Below, one piece after another: positions 11,473-42,801 of a stretch of DNA of 64,000 nt. Within the stretch, counting starts at the first letter, position 1. Each line of letters begins with the position of its first letter. A program made the position numbers and the translations under genes. Origin of the DNA: an uncultured bacterium (GTDB taxonomy: Bacteria > Patescibacteriota > Gracilibacteria > Absconditabacterales > Absconditicoccaceae); the NCBI GenBank assembly GCA_963516485.1, contig CAUQBS010000004.1, positions 869 to 64,868 of the forward strand, written 5' to 3'. The notes beneath the pieces are model-generated. The model was not told the origin of the DNA. It worked only from the letters and a program-made list of their open reading frames with translations, and made no database searches.

Positions 11473-12045
11473 TTATAGTCAGAATTTTTTTGGATTTTTG
11501 AGCTTAAATTCCCTTGGTGAGAGGAATCTCTCAATAATTGCATCGAGGACCTTATCTACATTCTCTCCTGTTTTCCCAGATACACAGATCACTTCGTCTT
11601 TTGAGAGTCCAATCATATTTTCAATTTCTCCAGCAACTCTATCTGGATTCGCAGCGGGGAGATCAATCTTGTTCAAGACTGGGATAATATCTAGCCCCTG
11701 ATCAATTGCTTGATACAGTGTTGAAAGCGTTTGAGCCTGAATTCCCTGAGAGGCATCAACCAACAAAATCGCCCCTTCAACCGCAGCTAGTGAACGAGAC
11801 ACTTCGTACTGAAAATCAACGTGTCCCGGAGTATCAATAAGATTAAGTTCGTAGCCCTTCCATTGCATTCTAGCTGGCGTAAGCTTGATCGTAATTCCTC
11901 TTTCCTGTTCTATATCCATACGATCCAAAACCTGAGAATGATTGAGTTTTCTCACAGTCCCAGTGATTTCAAGCATTCTATCTGCTAGTGTAGATTTCCC
12001 ATGATCAATATGCGCGATAATACAAAAATTCCTAATCTTGTCCAT
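11473..12045 (-). CDS. lepA: elongation factor 4 (LepA), N-terminal GTPase domain only (190 aa)
   Basis: [44 protein letters not shown] Shine-Dalgarno sits upstream. The protein ends ...[21 protein letters not shown](TGA)-L-TAA, exactly at the G-domain/domain II boundary. Confidence 0.9.
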
Positions 12046-12190
12046 CTTTTCCCTCAGGTGCAAAAAAATTAAAAATCTGATTTTCCTTCCCTTTTTGTCT
12101 CTATAATCTATCGTTTTCCTAGATAAAAACAAGTGTTTTTACTCCACGCAAAAGAGACCTGAGACTTTCTCTTCTTCGTTAAAATTAATC

Positions 12191-12916
12191 TTATGCTTCG
12201 CTTTTGTCCTCCATTTCCTCAAAAAGCTCCTGTATCAGCTTGATCGCCTCTTTCTGATCTAAAAAGAACGGAGAAGTGGCAATAGTTACCATTTTTGCTC
12301 AAGAGATCAGCTTTCTTGTCTGCTCAAAGGTTCACTCTTTATCTTCAATTCCCATCATCTTCTCCCAAAAATCCATATCAATATCCAAAATATAGTCCTC
12401 ATCAGGTTTATGATAGTGGAGGAGTCAGTATTCGCTCCTGAGTTGGTCTATAGATCCGAGTAATCCACTTCCTAATGCTGGAACAATAAAGTTCCCAACA
12501 TTACACTTCTCTTGGACAAATCAAAAGATTAAATCCAGATTTTTTTCATCTATTTTTCCCTCGTTAGGTTTCATATCCGAGTGCTGATCTATATGAATGA
12601 GCTTTACCCCTTTCGAAAAGCGATTTTGAAAATATTCCTTATACCAGAAATATAAAGCATGATTGTGATTGTCAAAAATATAGATCGGCACTCCTCAAAC
12701 CTCGAAGGTCAAAAATTCCTTTAATCCATAAAAATACTCTAAAGTCCCATTTGTTCATTTTTCACAAAAAACTGGCTCTTCTCAGAGTTCTAGCTCAGAG
12801 ATTCCCTTTTTTACAAGTGGTGCAATCCAAAGTTTTACAGGTTTTCACTCTTCTTGTGATCAAAAAAAACAGTTCCCGTTTACTCATTCAAGCCAAAAAC
12901 CTTTATAATTCTCCAT
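12191..12916 (-). CDS. hypothetical protein, UPF0489-like
   Basis: 241 aa with about 10 in-frame TGA, so invisible in the ORF track. Motif VPIYIFDNHNHALYFWY ... IHIDQHSDM recalls the UPF0489 family. Confidence 0.45.
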
Positions 12917-13115
12917 CTCTCGATCAAAAATAAAAAAAATCAGATTTTTTATCTTATTGGTTCTACTTAACTTAATCCCTATTTCAACCTCTTTTCGATT
13001 TCTTTCCCTCAATCACAAAAAATTAGGACACTCAGTAGCTGAAAGCAGAGATTTTTTCTCTTTATATTGCTAAGCAAAAAACTATACTAAAAAACAGTTT
13101 AGTTTTGCGAAACGA

Positions 13116-14687
13116 ATGTCCGGACATAAACTCGTGATAAAAGATGCTCTCTGGCAGCTAGCCGGGAGAGTGATCAGCGCATTATTTTGATTTGTAATCA
13201 CCAAAATTATTGCCTCATATCTTTGACCGTTAAGATACGGAGATTATGGGACAATTTTCAGATTTTTCGCTTGGTGGACTGCACTGGTAGACTTCTGAAT
13301 CTATGTCCTTGCAATCAAGCAGCTCTGAACTCTAAAAAAACAAATACACTGAGATAAAGAAATAGAAGCTGACTTAAATCCAGCTTCTCCTTTGGCACAA
13401 GACTACTGAAAATTTGTTGGAACGAGAGTTTTCCTCATAGGAATTGTCTATAGTTTGGCAATCGCTATTGCCTACTTGATACCTGCCTATACAGAAAATC
13501 CCTATATCATCCGAGGACTTCCTCTGGCAATGTGCTATTCTGCAAGTAATATGTATGCAGGTATTCAGCAGATACCGCTCCAACTCTTTCGAAAGATGAA
13601 AAGACTGACATGGTCTTTGATTATTGCAAGACTTTCGCAGCTGCTAGTGCTTTTGCCGGTAGTGTATCTGTTCTTTACTAATGTTGACTTCCAGTCTGCT
13701 CAAACACCAAACCTTGTGCTGATTTCAGCTTTTTGTCTAGTGATCTTCTCGGTAGTTGCGAGTTCCCTTGGACAAAATGTGGAAATGCATCTCAGAACCA
13801 AAGATATTCTCCCTCTCAAGATCAGATTTGACTTCTCTTTTATCAAAAAGATTTTAAGTCAGAATTGGAGATTTGGTTTCTCTTACTTTTTTAGTAGCTT
13901 TCATACCTTATTGGTATTGATTTTCCTAGGATGGTTTTTCCCAACAGCTCAAAACTTTGATCATGCGGGGAAGCGAGCTCTGGCTTTGTCTTTGATAGAG
14001 ATTTTACTAATCATCCCATCCTCATTAGGAAATTCACTTCTTCACAAGATCCCAAACTACAGCAAAACACAAAAACAAAAATCCCTCTGAAATCTGATGA
14101 CAATGGTTGTCCGAATTGGAGCCTTGATTGCACTTAACTTCTGGATTTTCGCAGATGATATTATTCTGCTTGTCTCCTCAAGTAAATTCCTTTGAAACCG
14201 AACCAATACTATTGACCGATGAGCCAATCAAGTACTTCCTTTCTTGGGGATTGTACTTGTGCTCAGCTTCATCAAGCAGGTCTATAACTATATCTTCGTA
14301 GCTATGGAGCAACAAAATAGACTTTTCTTGATCAATCTTATCGGAGTAGTACTCGGTGCACTTGTTGGGATCTACCTTATCCCAAGATATGGACTTCTTG
14401 GATGAGTATTAACGCAGCTTTTGATTGAGTGACTTTTCACTGGAGGAGCAATCCGAGTTGCTGCCAGAAATCATCTTACCCCCCACTTTGATACAAAAAA
14501 AGTTATAATTCTGATTTCTTTATTGGTTGGAGTTGGACTCCTCGGTGCTGGACTCCATTATCAAACAGGAGGAACCTCGCTTTGACTCTGGAAGTTTTTC
14601 CTCATCGCTGCGCTAATAAATATCCCGGTTCTACTCCTAGCTATCAAGCCAATGAAAACCGTTGCAAAAGGACTTACACAAGAATAA
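13116..14687 (+). CDS. multi-pass membrane protein, MOP-superfamily flippase-like (Wzx/MurJ type)
   Basis: 523 aa, about 12-14 hydrophobic segments. N-terminus KDALWQLAGRVISALFGFV is typical of polysaccharide/lipid II flippases. Many in-frame TGA. Confidence 0.55.
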
Positions 14688-14710
14688 TTTTTTTATCTCT
14701 CTAAGGGAGT

Positions 14711-15580
14711 ATGTTTAGACAAATTCTATCAGATTCAGTCACTGTCCTCTTTCAAAATCCTAAACTCATTAGGCTCTCTTTTTTGACGCTTGTGTTTTAT
14801 TCAATAGTTCGTATCTACTTTATCGTTTATTATTTCAATACTTTCCTTCTCTATAAATATGAAAGCTGAGTTCAGCTCTCTGATGCCTTTATCTATGTTC
14901 TTGATAAGCTCAATAACCAGTGAATTCTCCGAGCAGTGATCTGAGTTATTATCGTACTGATCTGATATCTTCGGTTCCATCCGATAGGAGAGGCATCAGT
15001 TGTTTCAGCGTTGGATAATCCTCAGCAGTCAGCCTTCAGATCTTTTGTCAGAGGAAGTGGAAAGTTCTTTCCAATGCTGGAGTATAGCTGACTTTCAATT
15101 CCTTTCTGAGTATTTACCTTCTGTACGGTAATGCTGAGGCTCTATCTGATGGATATTTTTGATAATATATTTATTACAATTATCGTGGGAATCCGATGAT
15201 TCCTCGTGCTCTTTGCCAGTGTTTGTTGGTCGTATGCTAGGATTATTATTGCTCTAGAGGGCTGTCAGGTTTTTGATGCGATCAAAAAGAGTACAAGTCT
15301 CGCGATGAATAATCTCGGTCTCTCAGTTAAACTAATGTTTGTTGAGCTCCTCTTGATGCTCAGATTTATTGTTATTGGTCTTCTTATCGTTGGAATCCCG
15401 GTACTTTTGATCTATATTGCAGTGTGGTTGGATGTAATCCAAAATTCCTTTGTAGAGACCACGATCCGAGTAGTTGCAGCAAGTTTGCTTCTAGTAATCG
15501 CATATCTCAACTGTATTGTTGAAGCATTCTTCCTCACCTATTGGTATCAAGCTTATAGAAAAATCTCACCAAAAACATAG
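14711..15580 (+). CDS. hypothetical multi-pass membrane protein
   Basis: 289 aa in one frame shared with track ORF 15206-15580. Several TM segments. Confidence 0.5.
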
Positions 15581-15622
15581 AAAAACCTGAAATCAGACTT
15601 TTTATCTTTCTGTCTCTTTCTG

Positions 15623-15931
15623 ATGGACAGACAAGCCATCTATGAATATTTAACGAAAATACCTTACGGCAAGGTCACAACCTACAAGCATATCGCTCAA
15701 AAATTCTGAATTCATCCAAGGGTAGTCGGAATGATTATGAAAACCAATGATCATCCTGATAAATATCCCTGCTGCAAGGTAGTCTGAGCAGATGGAAAGT
15801 TGACAGGCTATGCTCTCGGACTTGAGGAAAAGATCCGTAGGCTTGCTACTGAGGGAATCCCAGTTCAAAATAATAGAGTTCCTCTTGAATATCTTTGGAC
15901 TTGAGTAGAGGAAAAGAAGATCAGATTTTAA
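15623..15931 (+). CDS. MGMT-family DNA-binding domain protein (methylated-DNA-protein-cysteine methyltransferase C-terminal domain-like)
   Basis: [16 protein letters not shown][TGA][13 protein letters not shown]...YPCCKVV[TGA]ADGKLTGY matches the YGxVxTY...PCHRV pattern, with PCCK in place of PCHR. Confidence 0.6.
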
Positions 15932-15948
15932 ACTTTGTGATATGCAGT

Positions 15949-18618
15949 ATGAACCTAGAGAATCTTACTCCAGCGATGAAACAATATCTTCAGATGAAAC
16001 AACAGAATCCTGATTGTATTCTGCTTTTTAGAATTGGTGATTTCTATGAAGTGTTTTTTGAGGATGCAAAGATTTGTGCTAGCGTGCTTGACCTCATCAT
16101 CACTTCAAAAAATAAAAACTCAGAAAATCCTATTCCTATGGCGGGTATCCCTCATCATAGTATAGAAAAATACATTCCGAGGCTGATTGCAAAGGGCTAT
16201 AAAGTCGCAATTGCTGAGCAGATGACAGATCCTGTTCCTTGAAAGATTGTTGAGAGAAGTATCAAATCAATTATTACGCCAGGAACGTATATTCAAGAAA
16301 ATCAGCGTGAACTCAGTACTCTCTTAGCTATTACAAGGTCTTCTGAGAAGAGTGGAACAAACTATCATCTTGCATGGTGAGATTTTACGATCGGAAACTA
16401 TCAAACCAAAACACTTTCAAACTTAGAACAGGCTCAAAAGCTGATTCTATCATTGCGTCCGACAGAGATTATTCTCGACTCAGACCTAACCAACAAAGAG
16501 GAAATCATCGGTCCCATTCAGAGTTATTTGAACTGTCTAGTCTCTGTATATGGAGTTCCCTTTGATCCTGAGCATACGATTTTGACCGTTTGCAAGGTAC
16601 AGCAGTTAGCTAGCTTTGGAAAGGCATTGACAGAATGAAGAGCTTCCGCTTTAGCTCTGCTTTTTGCCTATATTCAGCATACACAGCAGCAAGTCCTCAA
16701 AAATGTTAATACGATCAGCTACCATGCTGCTGATGGACTCGTTCTGATGGATGAAACTACAGTCAAAAACCTAGAAATATTCAGTTCAAGTTATGAAAAT
16801 TCTAGTAAATATACCTTATTTGAAATTCTTAATACTACGAAAACTGCGTGAGGAGCTAGACTTTTGAGGGATATTCTCTCAAATCCAACAAACAATAAAA
16901 CTGAGCTCAACTGGAGACTTTCTCATCTTGAGAGACTCTTTGATGATACAAAAACCAGTGCCATTCATCAGTTTTTTTCTGCTTTTTTTGATATCCCAAA
17001 GCTTTTAAGCCTTATCCTCTATAGAAAACTCAATTATATCCCGTTTATAAAGTTGAGAACCACACTTTGACTTGCATTAGAGGGACTAGATGGAGAAATA
17101 CTAACTCAGCTGAAGACTATCGGACTTGAGCAATCAGAAGTAGAGGAGTTAAGAGAGATTTACAACTATTTGCTTGCGTTACTCAAGGCTGATGATCAGC
17201 TTATCGGTGATAGTGACTATATTGCTGACTGAAGAGATCCACAAATTGATGAACTCAGAAAGCTTGCTTATCATAGTGATGATCTGCTCCTGAGTTATCA
17301 GCAAAAGCTCGTTGCAAGCTCTGGAATCACCAACATTAAACTCAAGTTTATCACTAATCAGTGATATTTCTTAGAGTTGACGAGCAAAGATAGTGAGCTT
17401 TTTGATCAGTGGATTAGCGAAAAACTCAGCTCAAGTCTCTCAGAACAGGAAAAGAATGAATTCTGAATTCTCCGCAGGCAGACCTTAAAGTGAAATCAGA
17501 GATATTCTAGTCCGCTCCTAGAAAATCTCCAGTGAGAGATTATCTCATCAAGGGAACAGCTTAGAGCTAAGGAACAAGCTCTCCTCCAAGAGGCAAAGTC
17601 TTTCCTTGAAAAAAAAGTTCATGTTCTTGCTGTTGTTGCTGAGAAAATTGCTTGGGTTGATCTGTTGACGTCTTATGCGTTACTTGCAAAGGAGCAACAC
17701 TATACTAGGCCACAGCTTTTAGACCAAGAGATAATTGCTATCCAATGAGGTCGTCATCCAGTGATTGAGGCTTTTCTTCCAAAAGATCAGCCTTTTATTC
17801 CTAATGACCTCAAGATCGGAAAACAGCCAAACCTTCCAAGTGATGATGGTATAATCCATATCATTACCTGACCAAATATGGGAGGAAAATCAACCTATCT
17901 CAGGCAGTCCGCTTTGATTGTACTTTTAGCGCATTGTGGACTCTTTGTCCCTGCTCAAAAGGCTGAAATCTGACTTGTTGATGGAATTTTTGCTAGAGTT
18001 GGAAGCTGAGATATTATCGCTAAAAACCAATCTACTTTTATGACTGAGATGATCGAGGTTGCGAATATTCTCAATAATGCAACAAAAAAAAGTTTTATTA
18101 TCTTTGATGAACTTGGTCGTGGAACCTCTACGTATGATGGACTAGCACTTACCAAGGCAATTTTGCACTATATTCTCCAGACACTACAAGCGAAAACACT
18201 TATTGCTACGCATTATCACGAATTGATTGCTCTAGAGCAGGAATCTCCACTCATCAAAAATTTCTCAGTTAGTGTGTATGAGACAGACAAACAGGTGATT
18301 TTTATGAAAAAAATTACTCATGGCTGAGCAAATAAAAGCTATGGAATCGATGTTGCAAAATTGGCAGGTATCCCTTCCTCAATTTTGGCTGAGGCGCGTG
18401 AGAATTTAGCTGCCCTCGAAAAGGATCAAAAAGATCAAGAAAATCAGACTTCTTCTTTTGCTTCTTCAGTACAGGGATTATTCTCGCTTCCTAAGGAGAA
18501 ATTTCTTGATAAAGCTCAATACGAAAAAATAAAATCAATGCTCAACGGCATTGATCTTAATAATATTACTCCGCTTCAGGCACTCCAGCTCCTCGTGAAA
18601 ATTAAAGAGGAACTCTAG
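15949..18618 (+). CDS. mutS: DNA mismatch repair protein MutS
   Basis: 889 aa after read-through. Motifs [28 protein letters not shown][TGA][12 protein letters not shown] (Walker A), [27 protein letters not shown]. Confidence 0.95.
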
Positions 18619-18619
18619 T

Positions 18620-19546
18620 TTATTGTCCGGCATACATGCGGTCAATACTTGAAGATTTATTCGCAAGATAATCGCTTGCAGTTTTTCAAAAACTAAAGCT
18701 TTTCCCATTTTTCTCATCAAGATAGGTAATTATTCCTTTTGACTTATCATACACGATCGGCTTTTGAGCAAAGGCATGATCAATAATAATAGGTTCCTCA
18801 GATGCATTGATTGCTCAGATAGAGAGTGATTTATTTGGTGTCTTATCTAAAATATCTTTGATCTGTTCGTAGGTTTCCATGTCTAATATCCCGTGTACAT
18901 CAGGATGTGGGGTATTATTCGGAGTTGAAAGCACGTGATCATCATATTTAAATTGACCGGTTTTCGCATCTTTTGACATGAACTTTCCAGCTATCGCTTT
19001 GGCAGCTAGAGAAGGAAGTCAGATATTGAATTTCTTATCAGTCGTTTTCATAAAGTCTGAAATTATTGCGAGATTGTTCTTATCATTACGTGAGGTAATT
19101 GAGGGGAAAACAAGCATTGGACCCTGGGATGGATCTCCAGACTCTTTTGCTATTCCTTGTAGAAGAGTAATAATGTCCTCTGGTCTCATATCATGAAAAT
19201 GAAGCTCTGTTCAGTCCTTTTTCATCTTATTATAAATCTTTGGGAGATTGATAGAGAGATCGGTTTGATTGATATTTTCTCCCCAACGCTCACTTGCGCT
19301 ATTTCCCAGTCCATAGCACTCCTTCAGAATGTCTTTGGGATTTGTCCCATTTCTCAATTTCTCAACAACGACACTATTTCTACGGCTAGGATCATTGTAG
19401 GGGTGTTCTTTAGCAAGATTGAGATTCTTTTTTGAAGTATCTGCTCCTTTCTCTACATTTACCTGTTTTACGTTGCTTTCTTTCCCTTTAGCGAGAGGTT
19501 TAATCTCTTTTATTTCATCTCTGTTTCCCATATTTTCCATACTCAT
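18620..19546 (-). CDS. hypothetical protein (308 aa)
   Basis: Track ORF 19211-19546 continues through 4 in-frame TGA to a TAA at 18620-18622. No family recognised. Confidence 0.5.
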
Positions 19547-19679
19547 ATTGCTAGAATATAAAGATTATATTCAAGTATACCCTTTTCTCTAAAAAAGTCA
19601 AAAAAGCCAGATTTTTCTATAAGTTTAAAAAAAGCTTCTTCCTGTAAATCAGGGAAAAGCTTTTTAATTAGACGTAGGT

Positions 19680-20015
19680 CTAGATAATAGTTTCTGCCTC
19701 GTAATTGAGAATCTTGTCCTTAAGTTTTAATTCTCTAAGGATCTCTCGAGAGTGATTCGTAGCCTCTTCCAAGGCCTCATATGCTCTTTGTAGTTCTGTC
19801 AATTCTTTACCAACAACACCTTTATCATTTATCGCTTCTAGATACCTTTTTCGAAGTTCTTTTGCTTTATCAAAAGAGCTTTTAAATTCCTTATCTAAGC
19901 GCGCGAGCTGTTCTCTCAAGAAAAGAAAATATCTTTCTCGATAGGTTTCATCAGAAACTTTCTGATAGTTAGGGGATCTTTCCATGACATTTATTTTTTT
20001 TATATTAGACACCAA
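19680..20015 (-). CDS. small coiled-coil hypothetical protein
   Basis: Intact ORF with Lys/Glu/Leu-rich heptad-like sequence. The real start may be the internal ATG at 19985 (MERSPNYQK). Confidence 0.45.
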   Translation of the reverse strand: MVSNIKKINVMERSPNYQKVSDETYRERYFLFLREQLARLDKEFKSSFDKAKELRKRYLEAINDKGVVGKELTELQRAYEALEEATNHSREILRELKLKDKILNYEAETII

Positions 20016-20066
20016 CTATACATATAATATATACAAAAGTCAATACTTTTTTGAAAAAAATACAAT

Positions 20067-20105
20067 AAAAAAAACTGACTCCATTGAGCTGAAGTCAGAT
20101 TTTTA
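20067..20105 (-). terminator. intrinsic terminator after the 20118-20531 gene
   Basis: Minus sense: TCTGACT-loop-AGTCAG followed by a T run. Confidence 0.5.
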
Positions 20106-20117
20106 TTATTTGTAGTC

Positions 20118-20531
20118 TTAAAGAGCAGAAGTCCTAGGAGTGAGATCGTTATAGTACAAATCTCCATTATACTGATTCTGAACCTGAGAATCTTTAATAA
20201 AATTTCCAAGTTTTCAAAGATGTCCAAGGATTTTTCCCATATAAGTAAAAATCTGTCTCGGAGTATAGTTTTCTGCTCCCTGGAGGTGCATAAATTTCAA
20301 TAGTGATGGAGAAACAAAGATCAACATTACTGTCAAAAACATACCCAAAATCATGTATCTAATGCTATCCCAAGCAGCTTTGATCTGCTTTTCATCTCCT
20401 TTTGAAAAGATAAAAAAGAAGATTGCTCTAAAAAACGCATAAATACATCCTCAACAAATGACCAAAACAAGTCCTCCTAATCCATAGAGCACTACTTCCT
20501 GAAATCCTCAAACATTATCTAATCCGATCAT
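20118..20531 (-). CDS. small two-TM membrane protein (possibly TrbC/VirB2-like pilin family)
   Basis: 137 aa with 4 in-frame TGA. Two hydrophobic helices flank the loop FSKGDEKQIKAAWDSIRYMILG, a layout seen in CPR T4SS-pilin-like proteins. The function is a weak guess. Confidence 0.35.
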
Positions 20532-20599
20532 TGATCATCAAATCAAAAATTAAAGGTAAAGAAAAAACCCTCAAGGGATTTTTCAGTACTATAGCAGAA

Positions 20600-20896
20600 T
20601 TACTTGTCTGCATTCTTTGGAAGGCTCTTTCTTTCTCTCATTTCAAAGAATTTTTGGAAAAGAGCATCATTTGTTTCTTTATAAAGAAGTTTTGCAACTC
20701 TTTCAGACATCTGAGATCCTTTAGCTACCCAAGCCTTGATAGTTTCAACATCAGCCTGAAGGATATGATGAAGAGGATCATAAGAACCCAAAACTTCCTT
20801 GTATCCAAACTTTGCTGGCTTAGTATGTTCAGTCAATACGATTCTATAAAAAGGTCTTTTGGTTCTACCGTGTCTAGATAATCTAATAGTCAACAT
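20600..20896 (-). CDS. rpsP: 30S ribosomal protein S16
   Basis: MLTIRLSRHGRTKRPFYRIVL is the S16 signature. No TGA codon. Confidence 0.95.
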   Translation of the reverse strand: MLTIRLSRHGRTKRPFYRIVLTEHTKPAKFGYKEVLGSYDPLHHILQADVETIKAWVAKGSQMSERVAKLLYKETNDALFQKFFEMRERKSLPKNADK

Positions 20897-20936
20897 TCTA
20901 GAATGTACAATAAAAATCTAAAAAAAATCTGAATTC

Positions 20937-21113
20937 TTACTTAAGTTTTTCCTTTGAAGTGTGTTCAGTATGCTTTCTACAGTGCTTGCAGTATTTGTTT
21001 TGAGCAAGCTTTGGAGTAACAGCCTTGTTGATATTTGTAAAATAATTTGTAGCTTTACATTCACTACATACCATTGCAACCTTTACAACTCCTCCTTTCT
21101 TTTTTGCGGCCAT
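20937..21113 (-). CDS. rpmG: 50S ribosomal protein L33
   Basis: MAAKKKGGVVKVAMVCSECKATNYFTNINKAVTPKLAQNKYCKHCRKHTEHTSKEKLK has the CxxC...CxxC L33 pattern. At 58 aa it is below the track cutoff. Confidence 0.85.
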   Translation of the reverse strand: MAAKKKGGVVKVAMVCSECKATNYFTNINKAVTPKLAQNKYCKHCRKHTEHTSKEKLK

Positions 21114-21172
21114 AATACCTTAAAACAAACAAAATAAAATATGAATGACTTTTGAGATGATCTTTAGATAAT

Positions 21173-21246
21173 TGGCACTAGGTAGACTCGAACCACCGAC
21201 CTCGCCCTTATGAGAGGCGCGCTCTAACCTGCTGAGCTATAGTGCC
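21173..21246 (-). tRNA. tRNA with CAU anticodon (elongator Met, or Ile2 if lysidine-modified)
   Basis: Hand-folded cloverleaf: acceptor GGCACTA/TAGTGCC, anticodon loop CTCATAA, T-loop GGTTCGAGTC. The G1-C72 pair argues against an initiator. No encoded CCA. Confidence 0.85.
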
Positions 21247-21276
21247 ATAACAGTCCATCAATTTCTCAAATGAGGT

Positions 21277-21363
21277 ATGCAAAATCGGTGAGGGAGGGAT
21301 TCGAACCCTCGAGACGATTTCTCGTCTGACTCGTTAGCAGTGAGTTGATTTCAGCCTCTCATC
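21277..21363 (-). tRNA. tRNA-Ser (GCU)
   Basis: Acceptor GGTGAGG/CCCTCACC, anticodon loop CTGCTAA, long variable arm CAGACGAGAAATCGTCTCG, T-loop GGTTCGAATCC. Confidence 0.85.
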
Positions 21364-21465
21364 CACCTCACCAAAATTACAATAGTCATTGTATAGTGAA
21401 TTGGGTTTGAATTTCAAGGCAAAAACAATAAATTAAACTCTGAATTTTTATCTTTTTTCACCAGA

Positions 21466-22059
21466 ATGGCAGAAATAATAGGCGGAATAGATGATTTTTG
21501 AACCCCGAGAAGCAATATTGATCAGGTGAGTGAGGAAGCCGTCCAAAAAGCCCAAGAGGAAAATAGAAAAGCCAAACAAGTGGCTCAGCAAATCCAAGCT
21601 GACAAAAATCTCAATCAGCATTTTGCAGCCTTTCTCTCTATGCTCTTGAAAAAAATCAGCCATGAGGAACTGATAAAAGCGATTTATGATACTTTTTTCA
21701 AGACTATCAATCCTCAGAATAATATCACCTATCTGAGAAAAGATGGAAATACCAAGGTAATTGCCTGATTTTTTGTACCTTTTTTTATCAAAGAGGCTCA
21801 AGAATACAAGATTTTCCCTTTCTATGAAAAGCTTAGTCCTGAGGAATCTTGATATTCTATCAGGAGATATGTCAATTATCTAGAGCAGCTCTCAGCAACT
21901 TATCATGATAATATCCCGATCAATCAGTCAGCATTTGTTGAGCTTGTGGTACTGATTATCCAGTATTTTATCCTCACTGAAAAGGGAAAAACTACCGAAA
22001 AATATACTCCAGAAGAACTCAAGGCAACCGTTCTCAACTATCTCTATTACTCAAAATAA
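21466..22059 (+). CDS. hypothetical protein
   Basis: 197 aa. Track ORF 21526-21768 extends upstream to the ATG at 21466 and downstream through TGA to a TAA at 22057. Confidence 0.5.
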
Positions 22060-35398: not shown

Positions 35399-35424
35399 CT
35401 CCACATTTTTGTGGAGGTTTTTTT
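35399..35424 (+). terminator. intrinsic terminator
   Basis: CTCCAC-ATTTTT-GTGGAG followed by a T run. Confidence 0.7.
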
Positions 35425-35767
35425 GTTATCAAAAGGTGAAAAATCTGATGAGAAATCGCTGTTAGTATATGAGTAATCCTTTGGTTTTGAACGAAACAAA
35501 GCCTCCTTATACCATCTCTCCAATCTCACAAAAAAGGTGAAAATAGAGGTTAAGATTAGTTTTTCTAGTTGTTGTTCTTGGAGTGGGTTTTTGAGGTGAA
35601 TTCCCTTTCTTCTTAGAATAAAACACAAGTCAGTCAAATTTTCTTTAGAATTTGAGCAATGAGTGCTAGGGAGGCTTAAATAGTTCGGAATTTCTTCTTG
35701 ATAATAGAAACAATATCGGTAGATTTACCATGATCAATAAGTATGTCGTAAGTCTACCGTCACATAG

Positions 35768-36763
35768 ATGACTATAGGTAGATACTTGGCGGTGGAGCCT
35801 ATAGTTTTTTATGTTTTTGGGGGAAATATGTGCCAGACTGTGCCGGGGCTAAAAAATGATATAAAGCAAAGATTGCTTATATATCGGCAGTATGTTCTAC
35901 TAAATAATAAGGAGGGGAAAACAGATATCAATAGAGATACTCAGGATTTTTTTGTTGAATTAGGAAACGAATTATTTTGATTTAATCTAAAAAATGCAGA
36001 CTATAAAAATAAGAATCAAGACTCTTTTGACCTAGAGAACTGTGATAAACTGTTTGTTGTTCAGGTTACCTCTACAACTACTGCAGCTAAAATCAAGTCT
36101 GGACTAGAAATATTTAGGGATAAATATAAAGCTGAATTTTCCCGTTTTAAAATGCGGTTTATATGACGTAGAGGGAAAAATAGAAGAGATTTTAGTGAAC
36201 ATAGTGAGTACTTTGACACAAGAACAGATATTATTGACATAGATACTGTATCAAATGAAATTAATAAAATTCTTGATGAGGGCAGACTTTTTAAAATATT
36301 AAATATTATTGAAAGATATCAAAGCCTCTCTAGATTGGATTATCAGAAGATTAAGAATATTCTAAAATATATAAAAAAATATTTACAAAATAAGAATGTT
36401 TATAAAGAATTATATCAATTACAAATAGACAAAGAAAGAACGAAAAGGTTTGATTATATGGAGGAAAAGAATAAACTTAATAAAGTTGATAAGGTCATTT
36501 ATCAAGAGTCTATTATATTTAATCAAAGTATAGAAATGCTATTAAAAATGGATGATAATACAAGAGCTTTATATAATTCAATAGCTAAATCAATAAATAA
36601 GCTTTTACATGCTTGAGACAATGTTTTAGTTGATACCATCAAAGAAATTGTTGATAGCATGCCACTTGATGAAAGGATAGATAGGCATTATGAAACGCTT
36701 ATGATAGTTCTATGTAATATGTATTTTAATTGTGATATCGGGGAAAATCCAAAATGCTTCTAG
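35768..36763 (+). CDS. SMEK-like domain protein, first gene of an ABC-3C-like three-gene operon
   Basis: 331 aa; the start may instead be the ATG at 35828. The motif DINRDTQDFFVELGNELF[TGA]FNLKNADYKNKNQDSFDLENCDKLFVVQVTSTTTAAKIKSGLEIF matches my memory of the SMEK domain pattern (DIN..AE.F...LLN...G..L.N.N....IDL....IAIQVTS....KI). Helical C-terminal region. Three in-frame TGA. Confidence 0.55.
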
Positions 36764-37029
36764 TTGATAAACATGAAAATATAGATACTTCATTACTTGT
36801 GCTTAGTATGAGGATTTTTAATGAGATAAGAAAGCAGAGGTATATTTCTTATAGTAAGTTATTAGCTAAAATGAGATTTATAGAAAAAAATAAAAAGATT
36901 AAAAAGCAACATATTAGTGTAGAAAAATTTATTTGAGCCTTGATGTTTCTATATGCTTGCAAAAAAATTATTTATCATAAAGATATAGACATTTTTACAT
37001 TAAATCATTGTTTAAATGAAACTCAGTAG
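36754..37029 (+). CDS. small helical protein, candidate ABC-3C middle component
   Basis: 91 aa. Overlaps the upstream gene by 10 nt and the downstream gene by 14 nt. One in-frame TGA. Size, position and the ...KFI[TGA]ALMFLYACKKIIY motif resemble MC proteins. Confidence 0.45.
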
Positions 37030-38781
37030 ACTATATACAAATAATTCTGATTTTCAAACAATAGACTTTAATCCATGATTTAATGTTATTTTTTGAGATC
37101 ATGAAAAAAAAGATAAGCCATGAGAAAATGGAGTAGGGAAAACAAAGCTTTTACAACTGATAGATTTTATGCTCTGATGATCTCATTCCAGTTTCAATAA
37201 ACAAATAAAAACGAATTTGGATTGATGGGTCTTTTTTTTGGAGCTCGAAGTTAAGCAAGACCATTATATAACTATTTCTAGATTTCGAAATAGTGCCAAG
37301 ATCTCTATAAAAAAACATAGTATCAATAAACAAGATTACAGCGATATTTTGGATGTAGAGCAAGAATGGAATGTGTGGAAATGTGCAGAAAAACAAGGCG
37401 TAGAGATAATAAATTCATACTTAAATTTTAGTACATCATTCCCCTATAGGACTCTTATACATTATCTATTAAGAGAACAAGATGACTATGTAAGTCCTTT
37501 TACTACATCAAAATATATGAAGCATAGAGATTGGAAACCTTATTTGTATGAATTACTTTGATTTAATGGTATAATATTAAAGAGAAAATATTTATTGGAG
37601 GATGAACAGGAACAACTAAAAAAACAAATTGAAAATTTAAGAAAAGATGTTTCAGAATCTATTAATGAAATTTATGTTCAAAAGACAGAATTAGAGCAAC
37701 GTGTCCAAAAATTAAGGCAGTCTTCAGATATCTCCCCCTTTAAATCACAGGATTTTGATGATACTACTATTAGAGAGCTTGTTCAATGAATAGAAAGCGA
37801 AATTTATCGTCTTAATCGTGATCAGTATAGAATATCTACAGAACTTGAATTGATTAATGAATCTTTAGAAGAGACAACAATAACAGAATTTCAAGAAAGA
37901 CAATTTAAGGATTTTTTTTGCCAATTAGAGGGCGTACTTTCTGAAGAGGGAGACAACCTGAAACAAAGACTGATTGATGTGAAAAAGTTCCAAGAGACTC
38001 TTACTTTAGAGAGAAATAAATATCTGGAGGAAAGAAAGGTATTATTAGAATCAGATTTAGATGCAATAGCTAAAAAATATAAATCATTGGATGGTAAAAA
38101 AGAACAGTATTTACGTAGACTTCAAGAATCAGATTTGTTTAAAAAATACCAATCACAACAAAGAGAAATCGCTGAAAATCTAGAGAGGATAAATCAATTA
38201 GAAAGACAATTAGCGATCCATCACTTAATAGAAGAATATTCGAAAAAAGAAATAAAATTGACGAAGAAATTAAAGAGCTTATTTCCGAAATAAAGTTGCA
38301 AAATTCTTATACAAATTATCCGGAGTTATTCACTAAAATTAGTAACTTACTAAAAGATACTTATTCCAAAGTATATGATCAAACAGAAAAAGCCTTGATT
38401 TACCTCAATACTAATCATTCTTGAAATCCTGATTTTGAAAATAAAATAACAGATCAAAAAGATAATCCTTTGGCAACTGATGATGGATATACTGCCAAAA
38501 GAATCCTATGTGCCTTATTTATACTATCCATAATGGCTATTTATTCTGAAGAAGGTTTTAATTTTTTTAAGTTTGCGTATTATGATTGAGTTTTAGAATC
38601 TGCCTGAGAAGGAGTGAAAAGGAATTTTATCCGCGAGACTAAGGAACTCTGTAGTAAGTATAATATCCAATATCTTATTAGCGTCATAAGAACCGATTTG
38701 CCAACAGACAAAAGTATTACAAATCAAGATATTATAATTACTCTGAGTAAAAATAAAAAGTTATTTTGAAAAAATTTTTAA
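37016..38781 (+). CDS. coiled-coil ABC/SMC-like ATPase (DUF2326 / ABC-3C ATPase-like), interrupted by a 1-nt frameshift at 38243-38249
   Basis: N-terminus MKLSRLYTNNSDFQTIDFNP[TGA]FNVIF[TGA]DHEKKDKP[TGA]ENGVGKTKLLQLIDFML (Walker A), then about 250 aa of coiled coil. The frame switches from mod-3=2 to mod-3=1 at TCGAAAAAAG. C-terminus ...ILCALFILSIMAI...FNFFKFAYYD[TGA]VLESA (Walker B-like)...QYLISVIRTDLP. Confidence 0.6.
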
Positions 38782-38799
38782 CCGCTATGTTTTCAAAAA

Positions 38800-39155
38800 A
38801 TGTCTGAATCTACTAAAAAATGCCCATTTTGTGAGTCTGAGGTGTCTGAAACAGCGGTAAAATGTAAATATTGTTGAGAGTTTATAGATGGTACAAAAAA
38901 ACAGATAAACTTATTTATAGAGACGCATTCCAAATATCAGATCCAAAAATTTTTTGTCCTCAGTGCTGATATGAGGGGAAAAACTCGAAAATAGAAAGAA
39001 AAGGAAGCTCTTCAGTGTGATGCCTTTTATTTTTGTTCTTTTTTATACCAGGAATGATTTATAATGCACGAAGAGGGAGACCATATTTTGTATGTCCAGA
39101 ATGTGGTTATAAGCATATTAAGAAGTTAGAAAAAAATAATGATAACAGAAATTAA
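38800..39155 (+). CDS. double zinc-ribbon small membrane protein, interrupted by a 1-nt frameshift in A7 run 38895-38901
   Basis: Frame A gives MSESTKKCPFCESEVSETAVKCKYC[TGA]EFIDGTKK. Frame B gives ...IFCPQC[TGA]YEGKNSKIERKGSSSVGCLLFLFFFIPGMIYNARRGRPYFVCPECGYKH. Together these make three CxxC...CxxC knuckle pairs around one TM segment. Confidence 0.45.
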
Positions 39156-39185
39156 AATCTGACCATACTATGGTCAGATTTTTTT
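39154..39185 (+). terminator. intrinsic terminator closing the island operon
   Basis: AAAATCTGACCA-TACTA-TGGTCAGATTTT followed by a T run (12-bp stem). Confidence 0.8.
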
Positions 39186-39765: not shown

Positions 39766-39784
39766 AAAAACTAACGTTTCATAA

Positions 39785-39856
39785 TGCCCCAGCCCGGAGT
39801 CGAACCGGGATTCCAGTCTTCGCAGGACTGTGTCCTATCCATTGAACGACTGGAGC
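39785..39856 (-). tRNA. tRNA-Arg (GCG anticodon)
   Basis: Hand-folded: acceptor GCTCCAG/CTGGGGC, anticodon stem CAGTC/GACTG with loop CTGCGAA, T-arm CCCGG-TTCGACT-CCGGG. No encoded CCA. Confidence 0.8.
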
Positions 39857-39992
39857 ATTGCTCCATGCAGTATATGAAACTCTTCTCAAAAAACAAGCTT
39901 TTTCTTGCAATCTGCAATCATTTTCATATAGTATACCAAGCAAATAACCAAAAGAAACTCCTGTTCCTTTTGTTAAAAAAGCCACTTTTACC

Positions 39993-40454
39993 TTGAAAAA
40001 GGATCGCGTGAATACGAAAATAAAAACCGAGCTCGCAAAACACATCAATCTCGCCTCAAAGACTGGAGTATTTTTCTCAGCCTTTGACTCAGCGGGACAA
40101 CTTTTGGCTGCAAATGGGGTGATCAAGACAGATAGAGCAGTGGAGTTGCTCGTAGATAGCTTCTGCACTGGAATTCTTAATAAATACTGAGAAAAAATTA
40201 AAAGGCTGATTTTTGATCTTGTGACTGAAATTAGAATCCAAAACGACCCAAATGAACTCATCAAAGTGCCAATGCATGAGCGAGGAGTATTCCTTGTGCA
40301 GTGAGAGGATCACAAGAGCTGAGTTCTTCTGCCAAATACTAAGTGAATAGATACCATCCAGCAGGCACTCTCCGCTATCAAGCAAAAATATGGCCTCTCA
40401 TCACAGGTCTCTGTCTATCTTTTCAAGACTATTAGAGTTGAAATTCCACTATAG
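39993..40454 (+). CDS. AMMECR1-like domain protein (short)
   Basis: ERGVFLVQ[TGA]EDHKSGVLLPNTK[TGA]IDTIQQALSAIKQKYGL resembles the AMMECR1 C-terminal pattern (hG..i....g..LLP.V..e.....e.l.....KaG). The start codon is uncertain (TTG at 39993). Confidence 0.45.
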
Positions 40455-40481
40455 ATCAACTATTTGACATAAAAAAAATAA

Positions 40482-40510
40482 AAAAACCTGAAGCATGACT
40501 TCAGATTTTT
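40482..40510. terminator. bidirectional terminator between the AMMECR1-like gene and the lepA C-terminal gene
   Basis: CTGAAG-CATGA-CTTCAG flanked by A and T runs. Confidence 0.55.
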
Positions 40511-40540
40511 CTTTATATTTTCTGAGATATTAGATATTAA

Positions 40541-41995
40541 CTATTCTCTCGTAATCATTTTAACAAAAGTTTCAGTAGGTACCTCGACACTTCCGATCGC
40601 CTTCATTCTTTTCTTACCTTCTTTCTGCTTTTGGAGGAGCTTTCTTTTTCTACTTACATCTCCTCAGTAACATTTAGCAAGAACGTCCTTTTTGATAGCA
40701 GAGATCGTCTCACGGGCAATGATTTTATTTCCAAGTCCTGCTTGGAGTGGAATCGCGAACAGATGCTTTGGAATCAGTGTTTTTAATTTTTCTACTGCTT
40801 CACGACCAAGGTAATATGCTTTATCATAATGCACAACCCAAGTTAATGCCTCAACCTTCTCGTTATTGATAAAGATATCGAGTTTCACTAGATTATCAGG
40901 TGTATATCACTTAAATTCATAGTTCATGGTCGCATATCCTTTGGTCGCAGACTTGAGACGATCATAGAAGTCAACGATAATCTCTCCCATTGGCAACTCA
41001 TAATGCCAAACAACTCTGGTTGCATCAATATATTCCATATTTTTGAGTTTTCATCTATATTCCTGAGAGAGCGCCATGATATTTCCCGCATATTCTTCTG
41101 GTCCTACAACCTCAACATTCGCAATCGGTTCCAGAATCATTTCAATCATCCCTTGGTCAATCATATCAGATCCTGATTTTACTACGATCCAAGGATTCAA
41201 AATCTCAGCCAGCTTTTTAAACTTTGGATTTTCAAGCATAGTTCCAAAAATTCATTCTGAATGTTCTAGATGTTCGATCTCGCTTGTGGTCAGTTCAAAC
41301 TTCTCCATTTTCAGGATTTCGCGATAGAGTCCTGTTTGAACGAGTCATTTGATATTCATTCAGGTTTTGATCAGAGGAATTGAGAGGTTTTTAGATTTGA
41401 CAAGATACATTACAGTTGGTATCGTGAAAATGGTATCAAGCCCATACTCACGGAAAAGTCTCTCCTTGATAATATCCATATGGAGCATTCCCAAAAATCC
41501 ACAGCGGAATCCAAGTCCCAAAGCCTTACTATCTTCCATTTCGTAGGCAACGGCACTATCATTGAGTGAGAGTTTTTCTAGACTATCCTTGAGTTTGTCG
41601 TATTCAGTTGAATCAATGGGGTACACTCCAGCATATACATAGGGAGTAACCTTTCTAAAACCAGGAATCAAAAACTGATGATACTCATCTTTTGTCTCGT
41701 TTTTTCAGACCTTTGCTTTGATGATGGTATCTCAGATCTGCACATCTCTCACTGATTTTTGCCCAGTCACAATATATCAGATTTGTCCTTCATTAAGTGA
41801 TTTATCTGGTGTATATTCTGGCGTGAAATATCCCACTTCAGTTGGGAAAAAGCTTTTGTCCGAGTGGATCAAATATACTTCATCTCCGGCAGAAAAAGAG
41901 CCATCTACTACCTTTACATAGGCGAGAACTCATTTATAAGGATCAAATACTGAATCAAAAATCAATGCTCTTGAAACTTCCTGCATACTGCTCAT
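40541..41995 (-). CDS. lepA: elongation factor 4 (LepA), domains II-V plus C-terminal domain only (484 aa)
   Basis: Starts [21 protein letters not shown][TGA]VLAYVKV, the first motif after the G domain. Also [62 protein letters not shown][TGA][21 protein letters not shown]. Has its own GAGG about 15 nt upstream of the ATG. Carries a roughly 60-aa insertion relative to E. coli. Confidence 0.9.
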
Positions 41996-42131
41996 CAATG
42001 ATAAAATTTACCTCAAAAGGTACGAAAATCCTCAATCTTTTCAAGTCAATCTCTCGCTCTTGCTTGGAAGTGGAGTTCTCATCTAGAAAAAATGAAAAAC
42101 TGACTTCATGCACTGAAATCAGTTTTTTGAT

Positions 42132-42353
42132 TTACTTCTCAGTCTCAACTCAGAGATCTGCTGCTTCTAAATAAAATACCTCTTCAATACTGCGTTCAAA
42201 CCTCCTTGCGATCAGAAATGCAAGTTTTAGTGAGGGATTGTATTTCCCTAGCTCGAGAAATACGATCGTTTCTCTTCTTACTCCGACCTCATTTGCGAGG
42301 TCTTGTTGGGTTAAATTATACTGAGCTCTCAGCTCTTTGATACGATTCTTCAT
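42132..42353 (-). CDS. XRE-family helix-turn-helix transcriptional regulator (short, YozG-like)
   Basis: [48 protein letters not shown]. Confidence 0.8.
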
Positions 42354-42369
42354 TTGTTTACAAATAAGA

Positions 42370-42801
42370 TTAAAGTCAGATTTTATCTGGATTTTTTGAA
42401 AAATATCGTGAATTTAACCCTAGTAATACAAGTCACAATATCCATACTATCCTTAATATATCATTAGCACTGAATGTTTCTAAGAAATGAAAATGTCCTT
42501 CTAGTAGAGATACTAAGAGAATGATTCACATTAGGAGCTGAAACGATGCTGCAAGTGAGGTATAGCCGATTCTCTTAAACATCTCATCAGTTTCAACGGA
42601 TCATGTCTGCTTTTTTATCTTCTCCGCATGATAGAGCGTGAGTATTGCTCAACCTATTAGGAGAACTACAAAGAGTAGTAAAAGTCAATGTGATGGCGTT
42701 AAAGGGTTGAAAGGAATTTGGCTTAGAAGGTTGATGAGAGATCAGAATCCCCAAGCCGCAAGGATGATACCGATAATCCTTAAAGTTCTTGCTTTTCCCA
42801 T
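42370..42801 (-). CDS. membrane protein co-transcribed with the XRE regulator (DUF2178-like arrangement)
   Basis: 143 aa, 4 TM segments, about 7 in-frame TGA. Invisible in the ORF track. Confidence 0.5.

Follow-up and report, generated by a model that had tools for sequence, protein, structure and literature searches.

Gene Content of the AT-Rich Island

The window analysed here, a 64,000-nucleotide (nt) stretch of contig CAUQBS010000004.1 (assembly GCA_963516485.1), contains at 36-39 kb an island with a GC content of 0.26-0.29, compared with ~0.36 elsewhere in the window. This island, described as AT-rich in an earlier reading made from the letters and open reading frames (ORFs) of the DNA (the sequence-only reading), carries three overlapping genes on the forward strand. 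Gene 1 (35828-36763; 311 amino acids, aa) encodes a predicted LmuA-like effector and gene 2 (36754-37029; 91 aa) a predicted LmuC-like middle component. Gene 3 encodes a predicted LmuB/YydD-like ABC ATPase of the SMC type and is broken by a frameshift into a 5' fragment (37016-38293) and a 3' part (38249-38781). The previously reported overlaps of 10 nt between genes 1 and 2 (36754-36763) and of 14 nt between genes 2 and 3 (37016-37029) were reproduced exactly under translation table 25.

The proposal of an operon of the ABC-three-component (ABC-3C) kind, composed of a SMEK protein, a small helical protein and a coiled-coil ATPase, is supported by profile, PADLOC and Foldseek matches. We read the island as a cassette of the Lamassu family (ABC-3C, type II, 'short') of the SMEK/CTD12/MC6-8/YydD(DUF2326) subtype, and put the probability of this full reading, including the mobility of the cassette and the defunct state of the present copy, at about 0.72. 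The host is a bacterium with TGA recoded to glycine, related to metagenome-assembled genomes labelled Absconditabacteria/SR1, and the cassette is located in a variable AT-rich island of its chromosome.

Gene 1, the Predicted Effector

Within gene 1, the SMEK_N domain spans ~35861-36265 and is followed by a CTD12-type helical docking domain at ~36326-36754. The start codon was placed at ATG 35828 and not at 35768 as had been assumed, because an extra A at 35827 in the related copies L108-L111 breaks the longer frame and because the SMEK_N profile begins late, at residue 32 of the resulting 331-aa reading. The sequence GGGGGA is found 4 nt upstream of this ATG. At the other end of the gene, a lineage-specific extra A at ~36751 changes the final 3-5 codons read.

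The N-terminal SMEK domain, first recognised by eye, was confirmed by Pfam SMEK_N (PF21941; 86.9 bits, cut-off 27) and NCBIfam NF033859 (60.7 bits, cut-off 30). The same domain was matched by the PADLOC profile Aga_REase-PNTD (5e-18), and gene 1 gave a sequence match (E 2.8e-5) to PDB entry 26bh, the Mrr domain of the short prokaryotic Argonaute (pAgo) partner Mrr-APAZ from Kordia jejudonensis, in which the D...QxTS...K motif block aligns with that of gene 1. Residues D68, Q79 and K88 are invariant and T81 is nearly so among 71 sequences; they align to the Kordia domain and are putative catalytic residues.

Over its full length, gene 1 aligned with a SMEK_N+CTD12 protein (E 2e-13), and a profile search retrieved ~75 SMEK_N+CTD12 proteins of ~325 aa each. 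Members of this set occur in Gracilibacteria, Parcubacteria and Paceibacterota, and some are named 'SMEK domain-containing protein' or 'ABC-three component system protein' by NCBI. The C-terminal half was matched by hhalign to the C-terminal domains of the CTD12-bearing homologs (99%, E 2.4e-18), with the motif NMYFNCDIG being invariant in gene 1 and these homologs. An AlphaFold2 (AF2) model of the 94%-identical protein P0045 (predicted local distance difference test, pLDDT, 80) revealed an N-terminal domain of mixed alpha/beta structure and a bundle of helices at the C-terminus, the latter conforming with the helical C-terminal region described before. Gene 1 is, on these matches, a predicted nuclease with an Mrr-like SMEK_N domain and a CTD12-type C-terminal domain.

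Gene 2, the Middle Component

Gene 2 is intact in 13/13 copies compared. BLASTP against the middle gene of a standard-code system showed 28% identity (E 6e-11), and all 13 members of the gene 2 family alignment match MC8 and MC6 (best E 5e-23). The sequence-only reading had taken the gene for a small helical protein in an ABC-3C-like operon; the family matches support this and make it a predicted ABC-3C middle component of the MC6/MC8 family. A 55-aa call for gene 2 in L108 proved to be a gene-caller artefact, the gene being intact on re-translation.

Gene 3, the SMC-Like ATPase

Gene 3 had been taken for a single intact ORF in an intact operon. This was not borne out, as a 1-nt deletion in a run of six A residues (A6; 38243-38248) divides it into 425 and 161 codons. 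The 5' fragment comprises the N-terminal head half with the Walker A motif GENGVGKT and most of the coiled coil; its residues 1-410 are authentic and are followed by 15 out-of-frame codons and a TAA at 38291-38293. The 3' part, in the -1 frame, supplies the remainder of the coiled coil together with the C-terminal half of the head (DUF2326), including a signature-like motif, the deviant Walker B motif FAYYDG and the conserved Q552, and opens as an ORF only at TTG 38296. Adding one A to the run gives a 588-aa protein that matches the database protein P0030 exactly.

In the frame-corrected protein, AAA_23 was found at residues 14-235 and DUF2326 at residues 452-587 (41.1 bits). The assignment to the DUF2326 family made in the sequence-only reading thus stands, but its placement does not: DUF2326 forms the C-terminus, and the N-terminus is AAA_23. 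The best PADLOC match was PDC-M68B (7e-44, residues 3-459), and LmuB was matched at 3.4e-15. A sequence search against the PDB returned chance coiled-coil matches only, so that structure comparison was needed.

For this purpose the 95%-identical intact homolog P0001 was modelled with AF2 (pLDDT 83), revealing a bipartite head and a coiled coil of ~270 residues (~185-453). The coiled coil claimed earlier is thereby seen in the model, and the Walker B motif does lie in the C-terminal half. Foldseek ranked Bacillus subtilis YydD first (9a6c; 5e-23, TM 0.58), followed by the LmuB chains 9uxh, 9hqx and 9hqu (2e-14 to 3.5e-12) and, further down, by SMC, Rad50 and JetC as well as SbcC heads. While Walker A is canonical, Walker B reads FAYYD-G and lacks the Glu after the Asp (family consensus RFvYHDg). 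The ABC ATPase proposed beforehand is thus supported by the structural matches to YydD and LmuB and by the PADLOC match to LmuB, and gene 3 is best described as a predicted YydD/DUF2326-type, SMC-like ABC ATPase resembling LmuB.

Frameshift in Gene 3

To judge the frameshift, 13 copies of gene 3 were compared. The A6 run was confined to the window and its source scaffold L006, a 77.8-kb metagenome scaffold; the run is A7 in nine related copies and A9 in a sister lineage. In 12/13 copies gene 3 encodes 588 aa, namely in L007-L009, L108-L111, the phage-context copies L001 and L112-L114, and L003. Among these, L007, L008 and L009, which come from other samples but belong to the same strain group, are at least 98.5% identical to the window across the locus and carry A7 with an intact gene 3. 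The truncated 425-aa product is recorded in NCBI, ENA and Logan, on two contigs. Elsewhere in the window, 115 A/T runs of at least 6 nt lie in long intact ORFs and none of them is broken, which argues that the assembly is not error-prone. Since A6 is unique among the 13 copies, the truncated product is multiply recorded and the other runs are unbroken, the frameshift was treated as a real, recent and strain-specific loss, although only reads could prove it.

An independent inactivation was found in L111, where a 31-nt deletion at ~7200 (corresponding to window 36370-36400) frameshifts the SMEK effector gene and leaves genes 2 and 3 intact. Three short members of the gene 3 cluster had been considered as further frameshift alleles and were rejected. 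Those of 107 and 191 aa are table-11 call fragments ending at TGA, and that of 310 aa starts at an internal Met and has no frameshift.

Genetic Code

Under table 25, the ORFs of 100 aa or more in the window add up to 30.5k aa, as opposed to 8.3k aa under table 11. In-frame TGA codons are present in gene 1 at 35978, 36164 and 36614, in gene 2 at 36934, and in gene 3 at 8 + 4 positions. When the 12 TGA positions of gene 3 were inspected in 26 standard-code homologs, Gly occupied 122/311 cells and Trp not a single one. Where gene 3 has TGG, the same homologs showed Trp in 51/104 cells and Gly in none. TGA is located at conserved glycines of gene 3, including the Gly that follows the Walker B Asp. 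Because the homologs show Gly and never Trp at these positions, the predicted reading of TGA as Gly is confirmed for the window, and with it the in-frame TGA-Gly codons previously pointed out in all three genes.

Read with the standard code, gene 3 would end at codon 21; therefore, the present allele cluster needs a host in which TGA is a sense codon, but the family as a whole does not. The suggestion that the module is confined to table-25 hosts accordingly holds for this allele cluster and fails for the architecture, which is common in standard-code bacteria and viral contigs.

Phage-Borne Copy, Mobility and Distribution

A cassette with the 95%-identical gene 3 homolog P0001 lies between phage head and tail genes in L001 and L112-L114. 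It is preceded by genes for a large terminase, a portal protein, a minor head protein and an SU10 capsid protein, and followed by a bPH-domain gene and a tape-measure gene. By blastn, DNA homology between L001 and the window covers 35645-38781 only and ends at the gene 3 stop codon. The phage cassette is an AT-rich island too (GC 0.28 against 0.36-0.37 in the flanks), and the phage genes around it (L001 1-21767) read through many TGA codons, with 32 in the tape-measure gene alone. Some of the cassette-carrying contigs are 150 and 444 kb long, and the phage is therefore probably integrated in some genomes. No relative of gene 3 was found among deposited phage genomes, and the large terminase of L001 is at most 27% identical to that of any deposited phage. 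The 3.1-kb cassette is thus a moron in an identically recoded tailed phage or prophage and moves between phage and host.

Cassette identity was 97.3-97.6% between the phage and the window group and 98.2-98.3% between the phage and the L108 group, and 96.8% between the two chromosomal groups. In the sister lineage L003, the upstream flank (L003 1-1129) is 96% identical to the window, whereas the cassette (L003 1167-4733) is 87% and gene 1 82% identical. This difference argues for replacement of the cassette by recombination or transfer and suggests that the cargo of the island was swapped by recombination in L003.

The tRNA-Arg gene (anticodon gcg) reported beside the island was confirmed by ARAGORN and Rfam at 39784-39857 on the reverse strand. 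In sibling strains L108 and L109 (~12800-21767), homology to the window stops at 39818, inside this tRNA gene, and continues into an integrase and a prophage with an HK97-type capsid, implying that the tRNA gene is an active attachment site. This HK97-type prophage differs from the phage that carries the cassette. For the island itself, neither flanking repeats nor att remnants were found in the window, nor was a second copy of the tRNA-Arg 3' half. In agreement with the sequence-only reading, no integrase was detected among the 10 flanking ORFs scanned (27.8-46.7 kb). The DNA scanned thus shows neither the integrase nor the tRNA-derived att repeats of an integrative island or prophage remnant.

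The distribution of the module is patchy. In the nearest species-level genomes (LepA identity 82-90%), no module genes were found within 10 kb downstream of LepA. The LepA-anchored GTDB survey yielded no clean empty site, because in the nearest species synteny does not extend past the stop codon of LepA. Standard-code relatives have the effector-middle-ATPase (A-C-B) order and the overlaps (L010, L012), and lie beside a resolvase gene or within a cluster of type III restriction-modification (R-M) and UvrD genes. Among IMG/VR viral contigs, the triad was complete in 12/13, with the A-C-B order and the overlaps maintained, and the six effectors that were typed were all Mrr_cat/CTD12.

Comparison with Known Systems

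One family goes by the names type II Lamassu, DdmABC and ABC-3C, and for this family phage and plasmid defence data, cryo-electron microscopy structures and a demonstrated activation mechanism are available. The earlier remark that ABC-3C systems have no experimental characterisation is, hence, outdated. Short LmuB proteins have ~600 aa on average and variant Walker B motifs, the C-terminal domains of short LmuA proteins are predicted bundles of five to six helices, and LmuC is small and helix-turn-helix (HTH)-like. When LmuA is expressed free from the chromosome, with LmuB and LmuC missing, its toxicity is limited.

The island shares with type II Lamassu (LmuA-LmuC-LmuB; Vibrio cholerae DdmABC; Salmonella enterica LmuACB) the effector-middle-ATPase order with overlapping junctions, an ATPase of ~590 aa whose coiled coil is short and whose Walker B motif is deviant, a small middle protein, and an effector in which a nuclease at the N-terminus is followed by a helical docking domain at the C-terminus. 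The coiled-coil ATPase, middle component, effector with docking domain, A-C-B order and variant Walker B of the family were found here, the ATPase being judged on the frame-corrected or the 95%-identical intact gene 3. With gene 3 frameshifted, the three components are not all intact in the window, which bears on function and not on family. Differences lie in the nuclease (Mrr-like SMEK here, Cap4 in Lamassu), the docking domain (CTD12-type versus CTD7), the middle component (MC6/8-type versus MC3) and Walker B (D-G versus the reported E-to-Q variant), and gene 3 is only 13-14% identical in sequence to the solved LmuB chains.

Bacillus subtilis YydD (DUF2326), the best structural match of gene 3, belongs to the same Pfam family, and homologs are named 'YydD (DUF2326 family)' by the Joint Genome Institute (JGI). 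In 9a6c, which is an integrative model based on cross-linking and deep learning rather than a functional study, the partner of YydD is YydB and not a SMEK protein. We take YydB to be a phosphoesterase-type protein. As regards the effector, the nuclease domains listed for short-pAgo partners include SMEK, and DNA cleavage is on record for a SMEK-APAZ/pAgo complex. In the short-pAgo partners the nuclease domain is fused to APAZ and regulated by an Argonaute, whereas in gene 1 the SMEK domain is fused to CTD12 and the predicted regulator is the SMC-like ATPase.

With respect to the PADLOC candidate system PDC-M68, of which gene 3 matched the B component, neither gene 1 nor gene 2 matched PDC-M68A at E<=1, and a description of PDC-M68 was not found in the text of the PADLOC 'embedded' preprint. 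To our knowledge, PDC systems are candidates without validation. The triads of Mrr_cat+CTD12, MC8 and DUF2326 proteins from IMG/VR and from standard-code defence islands resemble the cassette in gene sizes, order, overlaps and families; they differ in having Mrr_cat instead of SMEK_N, in using the standard code, and in their ATPases, which are 26-30% identical to gene 3.

Proposed Mechanism and Alternative Explanations

In the solved A1B2C1 Lamassu complex, LmuA is kept as an inactive monomer at the apex of the coiled coil, and DNA ends cause its release and the formation of an active LmuA tetramer. By homology, a dimer of the SMC-like gene 3 protein together with the gene 2 protein would hold one gene 1 monomer inactive via the helical C-terminal domain of the effector. 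An encounter with the DNA ends or replication structures that an invading phage or plasmid presents would make the complex release the effector, which could then oligomerise through its C-terminal domain, so that the Mrr-like SMEK nuclease would degrade DNA indiscriminately and the infected cell would die (abortive infection).

The copy in the window is most likely defunct, as gene 3 loses its C-terminal ATPase half through the 1-nt deletion, and every Lamassu component was required wherever this has been tested. The truncated ATPase has the bulk of the coiled coil left and may go on sequestering the nuclease, in which case the loss would do no harm.

Several points weigh against this interpretation or parts of it. 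Taken alone, the C-terminal half of gene 1 scored 10.7 bits with Pfam CTD12, below threshold, and gene 2 alone stayed below the Pfam cut-off with MC6 (21.1 bits, cut-off 27.2) and reached 17.3 bits with MC8. Foldseek of the gene 1 model gave no significant match, only weak ones to restriction endonucleases, Shedu and Cap4 (best E 0.23), so that the predicted nuclease fold derives from sequence profiles. The AF2 structures, moreover, were computed for homologs of 94-95% identity with Trp at the TGA positions instead of for the proteins of the window. A consensus error or a minority variant could still account for the gene 3 frameshift; the two contigs with the truncated product may share reads, and TTG 38296, 2 nt past the TAA, could in principle permit reinitiation and a split protein. 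That the phage infects the present host is inferred from the common code and the near-identical cassette only, and transfer may have run either way between phage and chromosome. The defence function proposed for this cassette is deduced by analogy, and a literature search on DUF2326, SMEK and YydD found no functional study of the SMEK/CTD12/MC6-8/YydD subtype, which is already annotated.

The cassette would be functional if the A6 run were an error, if the frame were restored by -1 ribosomal or transcriptional slippage, or if reinitiation at the TTG gave a two-piece ATPase. Genes 1 and 2 are intact, gene 3 is protein-identical to intact alleles (P0030) apart from the missing A, the shift needed is a -1 shift on an A run, and the TTG is close behind the TAA. 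We nevertheless consider this unlikely, given that the truncated product is found in three sources and on two contigs and that the 115 homopolymer runs elsewhere are unbroken. The 0-frame sequence G_AAA_AAA is no canonical X_XXY_YYZ heptamer, and A6 is short for transcriptional slippage. All 12 other copies need no shift, so that nothing points to a conserved recoding signal, and a split at residue 410 would cost ~16 residues of the coiled coil. Alternatively, the A run might be a phase-variable switch, A7 being ON and A6 OFF, by which a population hedges costly immunity against autoimmunity. This would fit with ON and OFF alleles that differ only in run length in an otherwise identical background, with runs of A7 or A9 in relatives, and with the toxicity of Lamassu systems on mis-activation. 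Yet only one OFF allele occurs among 13 copies, A7 is short for efficient slippage, and L111 was inactivated by a 31-nt deletion and not by a change in run length, so that random decay fits better and a switch is decidedly improbable. Equally doubtful is its extended form, a reversible A7/A6 switch in which the OFF product (residues 1-410, with the effector-docking coiled coil) keeps the SMEK nuclease harmless and the phage copy serves as a reservoir that reseeds intact alleles.

A role outside defence, either as an addiction or stabilisation module of the island or prophage or as a DNA-repair complex derived from SbcCD/Rad50, is very unlikely. It would fit with the descent of LmuB-type proteins from SbcC/Rad50, with the matches of the gene 3 model to Rad50, SbcC and SMC heads, and with the carriage of the module by a phage. 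In structure and profile searches, however, gene 3 resembles YydD and LmuB best, and not Rad50, and the partner is a predicted SMEK nuclease with an ABC-3C docking domain instead of an Mre11/SbcD phosphoesterase. Housekeeping repair in particular is ill-suited to a patchy distribution, AT-rich sequence, R-M, UvrD and resolvase neighbours, and recurrent inactivation.

Significance of the Cassette

As the family is already understood mechanistically, the cassette opens no new category and is of interest for its context. With it, a Lamassu-type system is documented in a lineage of the candidate phyla radiation (CPR) type with TGA recoded to Gly, in which few defence systems have been examined. 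The presence of the cassette at 97-98% identity in a chromosome and in the structural gene block of an uncharacterised recoded phage represents clear traffic of defence genes between phage and host within an alternative genetic code. The independent inactivations, of gene 3 in the window and of gene 1 in L111, are as expected for a suicide system that is costly to keep; if the phase-variable 'safe-off' switch were true, the OFF state would be safe. For experimental work on the SMEK/CTD12/YydD subtype, intact alleles such as those of L007 and L110 are suited, not that of the window.

Zinc-Ribbon Gene and Flanking Features

Downstream of gene 3, at 38800-39155 (+), lies a gene for a zinc-ribbon/LITAF-like small membrane protein (Pfam Zn_ribbon_3; zf-LITAF-like just under the cut-off). 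It is cotranscribed with the chromosomal cassette and is located outside the phage-borne one. Its identity as a zinc-ribbon gene was correctly recognised in the sequence-only reading, but the gene is not intact: it is a pseudogene due to a 4-nt deletion at ~38888-38900. This deletion is common to the window and L007-L009, that is, to four samples, is therefore certainly real and is fixed in this strain group; L003-L005 and L108-L111 have the intact gene of 119 aa. A frameshift at the A5T6 run near 38945 was considered and rejected, as alignment to the intact relatives puts the lesion at ~38888-38900. At 38893-38899, the 0 frame reads ACA AAA AAA CAG, and an A_AAA_AAA heptamer is phased for a -1 shift that would restore a 118-aa protein; this may be coincidence, the lesion being a 4-nt deletion relative to the intact copies.

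Both terminators previously proposed as the limits of the island were confirmed. The left limit is the intrinsic terminator of the upstream gene (35399-35424, +), a hairpin with a U tract on its 3' side and a calculated folding energy of -17.8 kcal/mol (z -6.3). The operon is closed by a bidirectional intrinsic terminator (39154-39182, +) with a 13-bp stem followed by a T run. The non-coding leader and promoter region of the cassette (35645-35827, +) begins at the left edge of the phage-shared DNA as seen by blastn. Consensus matches alone identify the promoter-like sites at 35591-35619 and 35698-35725. In the source scaffold L006, the gene 1 leader contains a run of ten N and an 8-nt duplication at ~4655 (window ~35688), a position at which the window and three other assemblies are uninterrupted.

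The chromosomal genes flanking the island encode DnaE, an SLH-domain protein, the C-terminal part of LepA, a solute-binding protein and an M50 peptidase. The rnpB candidate that had been placed beside the island is not supported: Rfam returned nothing for rnpB near the island at the gathering score or at E<=1-10, and a motif search found no RNase P core motif anywhere in the window. Between the tRNA-Arg gene and the LepA C-terminal gene, a stretch of ~680 nt (39858-40540) has no Pfam-recognisable ORF and no Rfam match and is ~96% conserved in L110. A minus-strand ORF of 200-208 aa called in it runs into the tRNA gene and is probably a spurious call.

LepA/EF4 is split into two minus-strand genes that lie 28 kb apart. 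The gene at 11473-12132 encodes a stand-alone GTP_EFTU G domain (194.7 bits) with the AHIDHGK and DTPGH motifs, and that at 40541-41998 a protein of 485 aa, which begins with domain II and includes EFG_C and LepA_C. As the C-terminal gene of 481-485 aa is called alike in five related assemblies, the split is a feature of the lineage and not an assembly error. Directly upstream of this C-terminal gene, a small XRE-type HTH gene is located at ~42150-42370 (-), which is present as a 73-aa HTH_3/HTH_19 protein in L007, L008, L110 and L111.

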